This document shows positions 49,069-57,659 of a stretch of DNA of 64,000 bases, one piece after another. Each line of letters begins with the position of its first letter. Within the stretch, counting starts at the first letter, position 1. Origin of the DNA: Gemmatimonadota bacterium (GTDB lineage Bacteria; Latescibacterota; UBA2968; UBA8231); assembly GCA_038128265.1 (NCBI GenBank), contig JAYPJE010000019.1, positions 10,937 to 74,936 on the forward strand. The letters run 5' to 3'. The position numbers and the translations under genes were made by a program. Below the pieces are notes generated by a model. It was not told the DNA's origin and did no database searches. It saw nothing but the letters and a program-made list of their open reading frames with translations.

Positions 49069-49794
49069 CTACCGCTCCAGCTCGCCGGCCGGCTGCGATA
49101 CGTAGCTGACGTAGAGTTTTTCCAAATCTTCTCGCTCTAGCTCTTCGCGCGTCAGCAGGCGGACGAGCTGTCCGCCTGCCATAATACCCACGCGGTCAGC
49201 CACTTCTTTGGCGCGGAAAATGTCGTGCGTCGTCATCCAAATGGCCTTGCCCTCGACGCGCAGTTCTGCCAGCAGTTGGAGAAATTCGGCGCCCGATTTT
49301 GGATCGAGGCCGCTGGTGGGCTCGTCGAGCAGAATCACCTCGGCATCTTTCATGATGGCAATGGCGATACCGAGCTTTTGTCGCATGCCCTTGGAAAAGC
49401 CCTTAACGCGCCGATCAAAGGCATCGGTCTGCAACCCCACACGCGTTAGCACGCGTTCGCAGTCGGCGTCGCTCACCTCTTTTCGCCCCCCTAAACGAGC
49501 AAAAAAGTCGAGATTCTGGCGCGCGGTAAAGTTGCCGTACAGCATGACGTTTTCCGACACGTAGGCCACGTGCTGCTTGGCGCGCAGCGGCTCCTGCGTC
49601 ACGTCGATGCCGCAGATGCGCACCGTGCCGTCCGTCGGCTCGGTAAAACCCAGTGCGACCATCAGCGTCGTCGTCTTGCCGGCGCCGTTGGCTCCGAGCA
49701 TGCAAAAAATCTCGCCCTTGGCCACGACCAGATTGAGCTCCCGCACCGCTTTGACCGAGCCGTAGTGCTTGCTGAGGTTGAGGATCTCCAGCAC
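49069..49794 (-). CDS. ABC transporter ATP-binding protein
   Basis: Walker A GANGAGKTT, signature FSKGMRQK, Walker B ILLDEPTSGLD, TTHD. Confidence 0.95.
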   Translation of the reverse strand: MLEILNLSKHYGSVKAVRELNLVVAKGEIFCMLGANGAGKTTTLMVALGFTEPTDGTVRICGIDVTQEPLRAKQHVAYVSENVMLYGNFTARQNLDFFARLGGRKEVSDADCERVLTRVGLQTDAFDRRVKGFSKGMRQKLGIAIAIMKDAEVILLDEPTSGLDPKSGAEFLQLLAELRVEGKAIWMTTHDIFRAKEVADRVGIMAGGQLVRLLTREELEREDLEKLYVSYVSQPAGELER

Positions 49795-49795
49795 G

Positions 49796-50200
49796 TTAGC
49801 GCCCTCGACCTCCCCCGCGACCGCCGCTACCCGCGCCGCCGCCGGAGCGCATCTTAAGACTTTCGAATAGCTCGAACTGCTCTTTGCTGAGGATATTGCT
49901 CACCGCGCCGTCCAGCGCGCCCTGCACCGCGTTGACCTTCTCCATAGCCGCCTGCGGATCGCTGGCCATGCCGCTCGTCAGTTCCTTGCGCTGGTCCCAT
50001 GCCTCCTGAAAAGCAAACTGCAGCGCCTTGAGCCGGTCTCCGCCTACTTTCAATTCAAAACAGATTAGCGCCCAGTCGCGATCCAGCGTGGCCAGCGGCA
50101 TGCCGCCGCGACCGCGACCGCGATTGCCGCCGCTCTGCGCCTGCACGTATGCAGTCCACGCAATGAGCGTAGCAAACAAGATCCAACTCACTTTCTTCAT
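49796..50200 (-). CDS. Small secreted/periplasmic helical protein with Gly/Arg-rich ends (Spy/CpxP-like LSxEQ motif)
   Basis: Signal peptide ending VQA; RGRGRGG and GGRGGGRGR tails; ILSKEQ; GGAGGAGG RBS. Confidence 0.7.
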   Translation of the reverse strand: MKKVSWILFATLIAWTAYVQAQSGGNRGRGRGGMPLATLDRDWALICFELKVGGDRLKALQFAFQEAWDQRKELTSGMASDPQAAMEKVNAVQGALDGAVSNILSKEQFELFESLKMRSGGGAGSGGRGGGRGR

Positions 50201-50232
50201 TTTGTCCTCCTCCGTCGCTAGCAGCGACTGGC

Positions 50233-54628: not shown

Positions 54629-56130
54629 AGAGGCTCTGCGCAGCGCTCTGCCTGCTCTATGCCTGCGGCACTCTCGACGCACAGACGCTCACGCGCGAAC
54701 AGCAGCTGAGCAAGCTGCGCCTGCAGGAGAGCCTGCTCCTACTCGACGAGCGGCGCACTAGCTTGCAGAGCCACGAAGAAGAGCTGGCCGCCATCAGGGG
54801 GCTCTACGAGCAGGGCTTTATCGCGCTGCAAAAGTACAAGCAGACGCTCAATCGCTACGAACAGGCGCGGCTCAATTTTGAAGAGGCGGAAATCAACCTA
54901 GAGCAGGTCAAGCTCGATTTGCTAAGAAACGCCACCCACATCGCCGTGCTCGAAGCGCGCAAGTACCGCGACCAGGACAACCGCAATATGGTCGAAGTCG
55001 TGCTGGAAAACGCTTCGGAAACGCGCAATGCCTTGCTGGTGGATGATGCGCTCGACGAGAGCGAACTGCGCACGCTGCTGCGCGTCGAAAATATCTACGT
55101 TTCGCTGCGCAATGGCCCCATCGTCGGCGAGCCCTACGAAGTCCGCATTCCCACCCTCGAAGTCGGCCAGCGCCACAGCCTGCACTTCCGCCTGCTCAAA
55201 GACGAAGAGGCCGTCTACGTGCAGCTTTCCTACTTGGATATTTCCGATAGCATTCCCCTCCTGCTGCAAAAGGGCAGCCAGCAGGAATTGCCCAGCATCA
55301 ACTCGGCGCAGTTTGCCCAGGAGGGCGCGCTCGACCAGCGCGTCTCCTTTAACCTGACGCTGCAGTGGCTGTCCGACGAAGAGAGCAATTTCGCCCTGGC
55401 CGCCCTCGGCCTACCGCGGCGCATCGACTACGCCTTCTACAACGGCAATGCCAAGGTAAGCCAGATCAAATTCGACGGCACCAACTCGCGCGTGCAGGTG
55501 CGATTACAGCTCGAATTGCCGGAAAAGCTCGACCCCCAATTCGTCGACCAGACCCTCACATTTTACGCATTGATCTCTCAGCCCAATGCCTATGGACGCA
55601 TCAACGCCCTGCGTCGACAGTATGATAACGCGCCCATTCCACAAAGCCAGATCGACTCGCTCGACTGCCGCTACGTAAAGCTCGAACTGACGCCTAAGGG
55701 ATTGGGCAAGTTGGAAATCCTCACCGCCAACCGCTACCAAGAAGCCGAACTCGGCCAGGGCCTGCGCGTGCGCGTGGAAATTCTCAACCGGGGCACGGCT
55801 GCCGTGCAGAATATCGAGCCGCAAGTTGACGTGCCCTACGAGTGGCAGGAACAGGTCGAACCAACGCTGATCAAGCTGCTGGAACCGGGCCAACGCGCTT
55901 CGGTAGATATCGCCGCCCAACCGCCCGAAACAGCAACCGTTGGCGACTACGACCTAGGCATCAAGGCACGCGGTCAGGTCGGCACCGAAGACGTTGAGTC
56001 CAACGAAAAAAATATAACCATCAGCATGACGGCGCCGAGCAATGTCGCTGCCAACATCTTTCTGGTCGGCCTGCTCGTCCTCATGGTCGTCGGCATCGGT
56101 TTTTCGAGCATTCGCCTGAGCAGGAGATAG
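54625..56130 (+). CDS. Membrane-anchored periplasmic protein A: signal peptide, N-terminal coiled-coil hairpin, Ig-like/NEW3-like domains, C-terminal TM
   Basis: ATG 54625 overlaps TolC stop; LYEQGFIA hairpin; NRGT..V.NI, VPYEW, LEPGQ, VGDYDL; terminal hydrophobic helix then SRR. Confidence 0.8.
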   Translation: MKRLCAALCLLYACGTLDAQTLTREQQLSKLRLQESLLLLDERRTSLQSHEEELAAIRGLYEQGFIALQKYKQTLNRYEQARLNFEEAEINLEQVKLDLLRNATHIAVLEARKYRDQDNRNMVEVVLENASETRNALLVDDALDESELRTLLRVENIYVSLRNGPIVGEPYEVRIPTLEVGQRHSLHFRLLKDEEAVYVQLSYLDISDSIPLLLQKGSQQELPSINSAQFAQEGALDQRVSFNLTLQWLSDEESNFALAALGLPRRIDYAFYNGNAKVSQIKFDGTNSRVQVRLQLELPEKLDPQFVDQTLTFYALISQPNAYGRINALRRQYDNAPIPQSQIDSLDCRYVKLELTPKGLGKLEILTANRYQEAELGQGLRVRVEILNRGTAAVQNIEPQVDVPYEWQEQVEPTLIKLLEPGQRASVDIAAQPPETATVGDYDLGIKARGQVGTEDVESNEKNITISMTAPSNVAANIFLVGLLVLMVVGIGFSSIRLSRR

Positions 56131-56132
56131 CC

Positions 56133-57659
56133 ATGCAACGCCTCTACCTGCTGCTATGTGTGCTGCCCTTACTAGCCGCCCAGTGCCTGTCGGCACAGGA
56201 CCTGCGCACCAAGGAACAGCGCCTCTACGAGATCCAGCTGCGCCAGGCACAGTGGAAGGTCGATGCGGCCAAATTGGAAATGGAGACGCGGCTGAGCGAC
56301 TACGATGAGAGCAAGGATCTATTTGAGCAAAACATCCGCACGCTCGACGAGCTCTACACCTACCAGCGCGCCTATCAGAAAGCCAAATTGGCCTACGACC
56401 AGGCCGTTATCGCCCTCGAAGAAACGCGCCTATCCTTCCTGCGCGATGCGACCCACGTAGCCATAGTCGAAGCGCGTAAATACCGCACGGCGGACGGCTT
56501 TCGCCAGGTCGAGATAACCCTTGAAAACGGCTCCAATCTCAACCAGGCCATGTCGCTCAATCCCAGCAAGTCGCGCGAGGAAGTCGCCACCCTATTGGAA
56601 ATGCGCAACCTCAAGGTCTCGCTCGAGAGCTCGTCGCAGAACATTGTCATCGGCTCGCCCTACGAACAGCCCATTCACTCGCTGGCCCTAGGCGAACGCC
56701 TCACCCTCGGCTTCCGCCTGCTCAAAGACGAAGAGGCCGTCGTCGTCGCACTCGAGACGCTCGACGGCCAGCGCTCCACCTTCCACATCGTGCTGCGCAA
56801 GGACGCGCTGCAGGACGCGCCGACCATACACTCCGTGCAGTTTTCGCAAGAGGGCGACCTCAATAGCCGCATCCGCTACGGTCTCATTCTCGAGCGCCTC
56901 GCCCTCGACGAAAAGACCTTCCGCCTAGCCGTGCTCAACCTCCCCAGCGAAATCGACTACGCCTTTATTGACCCGGCGACCAACGCCAATCTATCCCAAG
57001 TCAAGTTCAGCGAAGAAACGACGCAGCTGCAGCTCGAGCTCGAACTGCAGATACCGGAAAAACTGAGCCGGCAGTTTGTCGACCAAGTCCTTGATTTCTA
57101 CGTCTTTATCAGCGACACAGACGGCTTCAGCCAAGTCGAACGCCTCGCCGGCATGGGCAATAGCGTCAGCATGGCCGACCTGATGATGCTCGACGGCAGC
57201 GGCGAGCGCTTTGAGCTCATTCCGCGCGGCACGGGTGCCCTCGAAACGCAAATTGCCACGCGCTACTGGGAGATCAGCAGCGGCGAACGCGTGGCCGCGC
57301 GCGTCGAACTGCTCAACAACGGCACGCTCGAAGTCGAAGAGGCCCACCTGCTGCTCACGCCCCCTCTCGACTGGACCTATGTCTGCACGCCCGACACCAT
57401 AGAGCAAATTGCCCCGGGCGAAAAGGTCGTCGTCGACGTCGAACTGACGCCGCCGCAAGCGCAGACAGTGGGCGAATACGACGTGCGCATAGAAGCCAAA
57501 GGGCACGTCGACGGCGAGCGCGTAGACGCCAGCGAGAAAGACATCACCGTCCGCATTGTCGCCCAAGCCAATCTCGGCCAAAGCGCGCTAATCCTCGTTG
57601 GAGTCCTAGCCCTTGTCATCGGCGCCGCCGTGGTCAGCATCAAAGCGAGTCGCAGGTAG
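56133..57659 (+). CDS. Membrane-anchored periplasmic protein B, paralog of A
   Basis: Shares ATH.A..EARKYR, FRLLKDEEAV, QF.QEG.L, LP..IDYAF, SQ.KF, VG.YD, EK.IT and terminal SRR with protein A. Confidence 0.82.
   Translation: MQRLYLLLCVLPLLAAQCLSAQDLRTKEQRLYEIQLRQAQWKVDAAKLEMETRLSDYDESKDLFEQNIRTLDELYTYQRAYQKAKLAYDQAVIALEETRLSFLRDATHVAIVEARKYRTADGFRQVEITLENGSNLNQAMSLNPSKSREEVATLLEMRNLKVSLESSSQNIVIGSPYEQPIHSLALGERLTLGFRLLKDEEAVVVALETLDGQRSTFHIVLRKDALQDAPTIHSVQFSQEGDLNSRIRYGLILERLALDEKTFRLAVLNLPSEIDYAFIDPATNANLSQVKFSEETTQLQLELELQIPEKLSRQFVDQVLDFYVFISDTDGFSQVERLAGMGNSVSMADLMMLDGSGERFELIPRGTGALETQIATRYWEISSGERVAARVELLNNGTLEVEEAHLLLTPPLDWTYVCTPDTIEQIAPGEKVVVDVELTPPQAQTVGEYDVRIEAKGHVDGERVDASEKDITVRIVAQANLGQSALILVGVLALVIGAAVVSIKASRR

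Follow-up and report, generated by a model that had tools for sequence, protein, structure and literature searches.

Within a 64,000-nucleotide stretch of contig JAYPJE010000019.1 (assembly GCA_038128265.1, Gemmatimonadota bacterium), hereafter called the window, open reading frame (ORF) listing and translation revealed seven genes in two tightly packed divergent operons at positions 49069-57659, which we analyzed as a candidate exporter. An earlier interpretation made from the sequence alone (the sequence-only reading) had described a divergent seven-gene locus in which two ATP-binding cassette type 2 (ABC-2) permeases and a TolC channel are bridged by two proteins, A and B, of inverted topology. 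All seven genes lie where that reading had placed them and are of the types it had named, and the tight coupling of the TolC, A and B genes is as described, the stop codon of the TolC gene and the start codon of the A gene overlapping in ATGA and only 2 nt separating A from B.

The leftward operon (minus strand) comprises the genes for permease A (51650..53035; 461 aa; PF12679, E 1.7e-26), permease B (50233..51639; 468 aa; PF12679, E 6.5e-36), a small secreted protein (49796..50200; 134 aa, carrying a signal peptide and rich in Gly/Arg at its ends) and an ABC ATPase (49069..49794; 241 aa, GTG start; PF00005, E 3.7e-29, 102.5 bits), separated by gaps of 10, 32 and 1 nt, respectively. The open frame of permease B reaches 51744; alignment with permease A places its start at 51639. 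The rightward operon (plus strand) encodes a TolC-family outer-membrane channel (OEP; 53294..54628; 444 aa; PF02321, E 6.7e-34, in two stretches), adaptor candidate A (54625..56130; 501 aa; PF10633 NEW3, E 2.7e-15) and its paralogue, adaptor candidate B (56133..57659; 508 aa; PF10633, E 2.2e-13). Scans of the seven proteins against Pfam and NCBIfam, a check that the sequence-only reading had proposed, returned the families ABC, ABC-2, OEP and NEW3, and no family for the small protein, for which no relative was found in the PDB either. The two operons diverge from a 258-nt intergenic region (53036..53293) that contains back-to-back promoter-like sites, one on the minus strand at 53159-53130 (10/12) and one on the plus strand at 53204-53232 (9/12). 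These are two of the three sigma-70-like matches found in 48800-58700 and are pattern matches only, 2.8 such matches being expected over the whole 9.9 kb in shuffled sequence.

The two permeases are 31% identical to each other, score 124.5 and 93.5 bits for PF12679 (ABC2_membrane_2; cut-off 27.2) and, as a pair of paralogues, are inferred to form a heterodimer. Permease B additionally shows a weak match to DUF3526 (residues 323-402). For permease A, an AlphaFold2 (AF2) model (pLDDT 89.4, pTM 0.86) adopts the six-helix type-V fold, with NosY as nearest fold (7o0y_D; E 1.1e-5, TMt 0.77) and also as a match in sequence (E 2.3e-6). NosY (267-276 aa) lacks a helical insert of ~160 residues that permease A carries between its fifth and sixth transmembrane (TM) segments (residues ~270-430; 51746..52228, minus strand; AF2 helices 273-297, 301-341, 345-357 and 361-394), and TM1 of permease A is extended. 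The insert is putatively periplasmic, as judged from the type-V topology and from the Arg/Lys-rich cytoplasmic loops read in the sequence. Since the periplasmic helices are ~35-40 residues long and would rise by an estimated 50-60 Å or so, they seem too short to reach the tip of TolC, and a longer bridging element would be needed. The nearest solved relatives of the ATPase are nucleotide-binding domains of the ABCA type (E 7e-61) and NosF (E 3.5e-38). With PF12679 scores above the cut-off, a type-V fold and a separate ABC ATPase, the leftward operon has the features of an ABC-2/type-V exporter.

The window OEP shows a signal peptide and two tandem repeats of PF02321 (117.8 bits), as expected for the OEP/TolC family. 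However, its score for TIGR01844 (84.7 bits) is below the cut-off of 225 bits, that for the NCBIfam NodT family is likewise below cut-off, and no PDB sequence matched at E ≤ 1e-3. Judged by these scores, it is a divergent member of the TolC family.

Architecture of proteins A and B

Proteins A and B are 38% identical over 497 residues, end to end (BLASTP). Both exceed the PF10633 cut-off of 24.4 bits (56.8 bits for A, 50.6 bits for B), as do all 53 family members, and this match defines one domain and not the function of the whole protein. The C-anchored hairpin/immunoglobulin (Ig)-like architecture that the sequence-only reading had proposed holds in the AF2 model of A (53-sequence alignment; pLDDT 85.2, pTM 0.52). 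In this model a signal peptide is followed by an antiparallel alpha-hairpin (residues 24-103, helices 24-62 and 68-103; 54694..54933), two beta-sandwich domains (residues 106-213 and 224-345; together 54940..55659, residues 106-345), a third beta-sandwich that corresponds to NEW3, also called NPCBM_assoc (residues 348-469; 55666..56031), and a C-terminal TM helix with a basic tail (helix 474-500; 56044..56124), the hydrophobic run of which ends in S-R-R. The corresponding hairpin of B (residues ~26-105; 56208..56447) was placed by BLASTP alignment to A, as B was not folded; the C-terminal TM segment of B (residues ~484-503; 57582..57641) is again a hydrophobic run followed by S-R-R, in columns that are conserved in the family alignment.

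At the N-terminus of both A and B stands a hydrophobic core of 10-13 residues that is terminated by L-x-A. Because in this the two cores resemble the signal peptide of the TolC protein from the same locus, we judged by eye that they are cleaved. The hairpin of A would then start ~3 residues after the predicted cut, at the end of the protein opposite to its membrane anchor, which would make it the membrane-distal tip, directed away from the inner membrane. As A has no long hydrophobic helix other than the C-terminal one, the N-terminal anchor of membrane-fusion proteins (MFPs), also known as periplasmic adaptor proteins (PAPs), would be missing, and a hairpin at the extreme N-terminus of the mature protein would leave no place for split lipoyl or beta-barrel half-domains. 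In agreement with this, HlyD_D23, HlyD_3 and Biotin_lipoyl were found in neither A nor B, and MFP families were absent among the 25 Pfam families listed for the 53 members scanned singly. A Foldseek search with the whole model of A retrieved only generic tandem Ig-like legs (integrin alpha, CfaB pilins) and no solved protein with the plan of one hairpin and three sandwiches; the NEW3 domain alone aligned with Ig-like domains of glycosidases and of HAP2 (VIA-align, Z 11-12).

The hairpin is of the kind found in MFPs, as indicated by the AF2 model and by profile matches. When a profile of the 53 members was compared with PDB sequences, 15 matches were obtained at E ≤ 1, and 12 of them were MFPs, all matched via the hairpin, with profile positions ~25-106 lying against the adaptor hairpin: MexJ (6.9e-5), five MexA entries (~0.002), ZneB (0.0086), a MacA/MexA chimera (0.0088) and, more weakly, 4l8j (0.032), a fusion MFP (0.15), a MexC-like protein (0.42) and AcrA (0.58). 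The other three matches were the NEW3 domain of a GH20 enzyme and two weak ones on other regions. In the genome from which the window stems, the same profile recovered, besides A and B, the hairpins of two canonical MFP genes (2.6e-6 and 1.7e-5), at places also matched by the MFP family PF16576. By superposition (VIA-align), the A hairpin fits those of EmrA, HlyD, AcrA and MacA with Z 10-11 and a root-mean-square deviation (rmsd) of 1.6-2.0 Å over 75-82 residues. We take the hairpin to be a coiled coil of the efflux type that is related to those of MFPs, and not a proven docking device.

Conservation and composition of related loci

A word-indexed search yielded 203 relatives, which, where named, are called 'NEW3 domain-containing protein' or 'hypothetical' and originate from metagenome-assembled genomes of Latescibacterota or Gemmatimonadota. 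An exhaustive profile search of 1.84 billion representatives gave 259, 666 and 1592 clusters at E ≤ 1e-30, E ≤ 1e-10 and E ≤ 1e-3, respectively, and a search of the ESM Atlas with A returned only its own family, again labelled NEW3 or hypothetical. The hairpin-NEW3 family is accessory, with members in 79 of the 168 genomes of the phylum, 19 of the 52 rated high-quality and 2 of the 7 others from the same genus.

For the analysis of gene neighbourhoods, ORFs were called in 59 related loci (one genome per species), 29 with a single copy and 30 with two copies of the hairpin-NEW3 gene, and were searched with the window proteins and with an OEP profile built from the matches. The loci carry the labels of about eight phyla, namely Latescibacterota, Gemmatimonadota, Aminicenantes/Acidobacteriota, Bacteroidota, KSB1, Omnitrophota, Thermodesulfobacteriota and Eisenbacteria. 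Of the 59 loci, 52 contain an OEP gene, which lies directly beside the hairpin-NEW3 gene or genes (≤221 nt) in 49, and by our own ORF calls the same 4-nt overlap as in the window occurs in 37 of these 49. In the remaining three loci with an OEP gene, a permease pair lies between (L037, L054) or the NEW3 gene is fragmentary (L058). Among 25 tested neighbours from distant clades, 24 were confirmed as OEP by Pfam, the exception being a DUF3078 protein (L057). Of the seven loci without OEP, three have the NEW3 gene at a contig end (L023, L036, L039), and in L032 an insertion sequence (IS) element of the rve type has inserted at the 5' end of A; its transposase gene lies at L032:9061-9975, the locus lacks the first helix of the hairpin as well as the TolC gene, and B is intact. 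The other three are discussed below. Homologs of A and B therefore clearly do co-occur with TolC, a lack of which the sequence-only reading had named as a reason to drop its proposal, and its statement that NEW3 proteins beside ABC-2 genes usually occur without TolC is wrong for the hairpin-bearing family.

As the sequence-only reading had noted, there is no adaptor of the HlyD/MacA/AcrA type in the locus: Pfam and NCBIfam scans detected no MFP family in the seven proteins, and PF16576 (MFP) has no match on the contig of the window (C19), compared with nine matches elsewhere in the source assembly (4.29 Mb in 102 contigs, 84% complete). This assembly shows 12 PF02321 matches, equivalent to six OEP genes including that of the window. 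Of the five others, those on C8 and C102 are adjoined by an MFP gene and that on C21 by a sub-threshold MFP match; A and B occupy the very position beside the OEP gene that MFP genes take on C8 and C102. In the related loci, 70 of 178 unassigned neighbour ORFs, chosen as lying inside or next to the clusters and leaving out obvious housekeeping pairs and ORFs already tested, were compared with Pfam, and a single MFP was found among them (L020:1677-2747), more than 2 kb beyond the cluster and beside a nitrilase-type gene.

Linkage to ABC genes was scored with thresholds of E<1e-80 for ATPase orthologues and E<1e-20 for ABC-2 permeases. ATPase and/or permease genes were detected in 28 of the 29 single-copy loci (both in 23) and in 21 of the 30 two-copy loci (both in 14), 19 of the latter containing an ATPase orthologue at E<1e-100. 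Overall, with an OEP gene in 52 and ABC components in 49 of the 59 loci, the hairpin-NEW3 gene is, like an MFP gene, linked to genes for an outer-membrane factor and an inner-membrane transporter. In single-copy loci the ABC genes typically follow the NEW3 gene directly and on the same strand, and in L030 all genes lie on one strand in the order NEW3-OEP-ATPase-permA-permB. An 892-aa metagenomic protein (P0251) even unites an ABC-2 permease (PF12679, residues 63-409) with a hairpin-NEW3 protein (446-890); it represents a single cluster and might be a natural fusion or an artefact of read-through or gene calling.

It might be argued that TolC, A and B form an independent module, an envelope tether or a channel for another transporter, and that the ABC operon lies beside it only through common descent. 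Within one clade, gene order can indeed be inherited, and nine of the 30 two-copy loci show no ABC gene in the DNA examined. In six of these nine, upstream DNA is short or missing, and a seventh is L032 with its IS insertion. In the other two, L007 and L010, which have long flanks, TolC-A-B occurs without ABC-2 genes within 10 kb and 8.5 kb, respectively, the genomes carrying ABC-2 genes elsewhere, and in L007 B is followed by a MacB-like FtsX permease of 813 aa with two MacB_PCD and two FtsX stretches (L007:13328-15769). However, the presence of ABC genes in nearly all of the distant single-copy loci, typically right after NEW3 and on the same strand, the single operon of L030 and the existence of the permease-NEW3 fusion make such independence quite improbable. 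As genes for OEP, hairpin-NEW3, ABC ATPase and ABC-2 permeases are repeatedly found side by side in distant phyla, often on one strand, the comparison supports the seven genes being one conserved system, far beyond what descent within one clade explains.

The duplication that gave rise to A and B was studied in a tree of 89 proteins (the two of the window, 30 pairs and 27 singles, NEW3 ORFs of less than 420 aa having been dropped). All 31 first-position genes form one clade (support 96) and all 31 second-position genes another (support 99); the two clades mirror each other in their internal branching and include none of the single-copy genes, and the gene order is fixed in all 31 pairs. This points to one old duplication inside the clade labelled Latescibacterota/Gemmatimonadota, and since both copies and their order have always been retained, it suggests non-redundant roles for A and B. 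The sequence-only reading had tied the two adaptors to the two permeases, a pairing that fails, because the 29 single-adaptor loci carry permease pairs too (1 to 9 permease ORFs per locus). We prefer the view that the A/B pair is matched to the two non-equivalent repeats of the TolC protomer and might form an A3B3 ring. A comparable case is TriABC-OpmH of Pseudomonas, where two paralogous adaptors encoded side by side are thought to alternate in one hexamer.

A putative TolC-dependent exporter and its known counterparts

Taken together, the two divergent operons would encode one ATP-driven, TolC-dependent exporter that spans the envelope. In this proposal an ATPase dimer would power a heterodimer of paralogous type-V (ABC-2, NosY-like) permeases, each carrying a helical periplasmic insert of ~160 residues. 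A and B, single-pass proteins with a cleaved signal peptide and a C-terminal anchor, would stand around the permeases, with three beta-sandwiches rising from the membrane and a distal hairpin by which they dock to the TolC-family trimer at its periplasmic end. In this way A and B would do the job that the MFP does in MacAB-TolC, with a different body and an inverted topology, and they would most likely alternate in an A3B3 ring, because docking sites of two non-equivalent kinds, three of each (3 x 2), are available on a TolC trimer. The contacts of A and B, the stoichiometry and the direction of transport are all inferred. The substrate might be an amphipathic or lipid-like compound, a guess prompted by the ATPase being nearest to ABCA lipid exporters.

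We put the probability that A and B have such an adaptor role, and probably belong to a so far undescribed class of adaptors acting in the periplasm as part of a tripartite ABC pump, at roughly 60%. In the idea of an inverted-topology bridge, as put forward by the sequence-only reading, the parts that stand are the gene position of an MFP, the MFP-like distal hairpin and membership in a conserved system; its logic of two permeases and two adaptors has to be given up. A broader claim is that hairpin-Ig-NEW3 proteins form a second adaptor class coupling type-V engines to TolC in at least eight phylum-level lineages, built from a TolC-docking hairpin, an Ig-like stalk and a C-terminal anchor, the reverse of MFP topology, with an A3B3 ring in the Latescibacterota-type clade; for this claim as a whole we regard the chances as evenly balanced.

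Besides L007 and L010, several observations weigh against an adaptor function. The arrangement of the domains relative to each other in the A model is uncertain, as its pTM of 0.52 indicates. Unrelated coiled coils (F-BAR, ROP, SMC) superpose on the A hairpin as well as MFPs do, and fold superposition was therefore rejected as MFP-specific evidence. In addition, 22 of the 53 members scanned singly weakly match OEP itself (best E 0.0017), and the hairpin may be a generic efflux-type coiled coil. The RLS motif of the hairpin tip is not kept: in the alignment with MexJ and MexA only the Leu is shared (L60 of A, nearly invariant), the Arg being replaced by Ala in A and the Ser by Ala in A and by Thr in B. 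Nor is the tip specially conserved, its entropy versus that of the rest of the hairpin being 0.99 vs 1.02 for A and 1.04 vs 0.93 for B, and tip conservation was likewise rejected as evidence for a docking surface. In L035, L045 and L057, hairpin proteins occur with no OEP gene next to theirs, a histidine kinase gene lying upstream in place of the OEP gene in the first two, and the Omnitrophota locus L030 encodes a NEW3 protein of 427 aa without a hairpin although an OEP gene is part of its operon. Finally, the source genome has several MFP genes with no OEP gene beside them (on C5, C6, C27, C43 and C1), so that an unlinked MFP may be the partner of the window system. A complex prediction with TolC (20-444), A (21-215) and B (23-222), run on 19-row alignments, scored 0.02 relative to a mark of 0.32, which counts neither for nor against contact.

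Alternatively, A and B might be accessory periplasmic subunits of the ABC-2 transporter, serving in substrate capture or as a scaffold at the inner membrane without docking on TolC; TolC would then be coupled through an unlinked canonical MFP or would take up substrate that has been set free in the periplasm. The wide occurrence of NEW3 as an Ig-like module, the hairpin-less relative in L030, the MFP genes that adjoin no OEP gene and a hairpin tip that lacks the RLS motif and is not specially conserved all fit this explanation. We nevertheless consider it unlikely: the NEW3 genes hold a near-invariant place right after the OEP gene, usually with stop and start codons overlapping, which is the position of MFP genes; the hairpin matches MFP hairpins specifically, both in the PDB and in its own genome; and only one of the 70 neighbour ORFs compared with Pfam was an MFP.

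An adaptor function of A and B would resemble that of MacA in MacAB-TolC (PDB 5nik), which likewise combines an ABC engine possessing a periplasmic domain, a TolC duct and a single-pass adaptor whose hairpin faces TolC. The hairpin of A superposes on that of MacA with Z 10.1 and an rmsd of 1.6 Å over 82 residues. MacAB-TolC assembles as MacA6:MacB2:TolC3. Unlike in that pump, the window permeases are ABC-2/type V (NosY-like) and not of the FtsX/MacB type VII, the ATPase is a separate polypeptide serving two different permeases, the adaptor body consists of three Ig-like sandwiches instead of lipoyl, beta-barrel and membrane-proximal (MP) domains, the anchor is C-terminal where that of MacA is N-terminal, and there are two paralogous adaptors. 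Similarly, A shares with AcrA, MexA, MexJ, EmrA and HlyD an antiparallel hairpin of similar length and a gene directly beside that of the OEP. In these canonical PAPs, however, the hairpin is inserted inside the lipoyl domain, whereas the hairpin of A forms the extreme mature N-terminus and lacks the RLS motif.

With its two paralogous adaptors, both retained and encoded side by side, TriABC-OpmH is a parallel to the A/B pair, although TriA and TriB are canonical MFPs that work with a transporter of the resistance-nodulation-division (RND) type. NosDFY(L) (PDB 7o0y) also has an ABC-2 engine, with NosY as the closest solved permease and NosF as a close relative of the ATPase, and a periplasmic partner protein docked on the permease, as is proposed here; yet NosY is a homodimer without the 160-residue insert, its partner NosD is a soluble beta-helix and TolC is not involved. 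In BesABC of Borrelia, the adaptor BesA departs from the standard plan and is described as aberrant in the part of the review PMC8277102 available, where type-V ABC transporters are mentioned in passing only. BesA keeps the lipoyl, beta-barrel and MP body and has lost the hairpin, and the relative in L030 offers a parallel in having no hairpin either; in A and B the hairpin is present and such a body is missing.

Could the locus be an ordinary member of a characterized tripartite family, such as MacAB-TolC, type I secretion or DevBCA-like systems, in which the adaptor was merely missed? An ABC transporter, an OEP and a hairpin protein together follow the logic of known pumps. Nonetheless, the permeases are ABC-2/NosY-like and neither FtsX/MacB nor type IV, and A and B lack lipoyl, beta-barrel and MP domains. 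In the available part of the review PMC13328181, adaptors of RND, ABC and major facilitator superfamily (MFS) pumps consist of an MP domain, a beta-barrel, a lipoyl domain and a hairpin, with an N-terminal lipid or TM anchor; the RLS motif is named at the hairpin tip, and the terms 'Ig-like' and 'atypical' do not occur. The parts of PMC8277102 and PMC13328181 available thus list only the four-domain, N-anchored PAP plan, and no paper linking NEW3/NPCBM_assoc with TolC and ABC-2 was found in the full-text literature, subscription journals not being covered. We consider membership in a characterized family very improbable.

If the adaptor reading is true, the single N-anchored adaptor plan shared by the tripartite pumps described in the available parts of PMC8277102 and PMC13328181 would be joined by one in which a structurally unrelated body carries the same kind of hairpin, and docking to TolC would be a portable module. 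ABC-2/type-V engines would join the transporters known to use TolC, and a function could be assigned to at least 259 sequence clusters that bear no labels but 'NEW3 domain-containing' or 'hypothetical'. With its fixed A/B pair, the system would also lend itself naturally to studying how the two non-equivalent repeats of the TolC protomer are read by a hexameric adaptor ring.

Neighbouring genes and variants of the cluster

The locus is flanked by genes for an 851-aa acidic protein, a GFO/IDH/MocA oxidoreductase, a UVR-motif protein, dapB, dapA and purH. The 851-aa protein (46313-48868, minus strand) adjoins the locus directly and recurs beside it in eight related loci (L001, L006, L010, L018, L022, L026, L027, L031). 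It was set aside as a candidate substrate or component, since it has no signal peptide, consists in part of an acidic low-complexity stretch with a long Asp/Glu run and belongs to no Pfam family. On the other side, 83 nt 3' of B and on the same (plus) strand, lies the gene for a 254-aa acidic protein with a C-terminal UvrB/UvrC motif (57743-58507). An orthologue follows B in 21 of the 30 two-copy loci; the protein looks cytoplasmic and may belong to the operon. Parts of the window are covered by 20 DNA sequencing runs from 12 studies, with no RNA run among the 24 runs listed.

In the single-copy clade, a divergent histidine kinase gene and/or a gene for a sigma-54-dependent response regulator is found upstream of the OEP gene (L035, L038, L040, L044, L045, L046, L048, L053, L054, L055, L058, L059), the kinase containing a GAF domain in 8 of the 10 loci where it was seen. 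This arrangement suggests that the single-copy clusters are inducibly expressed; nothing similar adjoins the window locus. Mobile elements were also encountered, a group II intron reverse transcriptase/maturase and a DDE transposase lying upstream of the TolC gene in L011 (L011:3492-6255).

In L048, L044, L050, L059, L039 and L040, genes for ABC-2 permeases are lined up in large tandem arrays, accompanied by no more than one or two ATPase genes, with up to 9 permease ORFs in one 21-kb locus, and the genome that holds L007 (G168) shows ~15 matches within 55 kb (C1:5207655-5261789). Among the adaptor relatives, P0106, P0127 and P0130 (718-797 aa) possess ~335-390 extra N-terminal residues in place of the hairpin of ~100 residues. 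Two of the three weakly match OEP in this extension (E 0.0006 and 0.0012), and all three may carry a much longer coiled coil.

The small 134-aa protein of the leftward operon was found again only in the closest loci, L001 and L031. ESM Atlas leads to DUF4890 and LTXXQ-motif periplasmic proteins had scores of 0.87-0.89, under 0.9, and the protein contains an L-S-x-x-Q stretch. In several relatives, HEAT-repeat proteins of ~350-470 aa, two of them with a CBM9-like domain, are encoded inside or right after the ABC operon (L014:13228-18797, L016:4447-5826, L028:13131-14186 and 17488-18891, L030:16084-17421), and in L014 and L026 ORFs of similar size without a family match occupy this place. The window carries the gene for its 134-aa protein at a comparable position.

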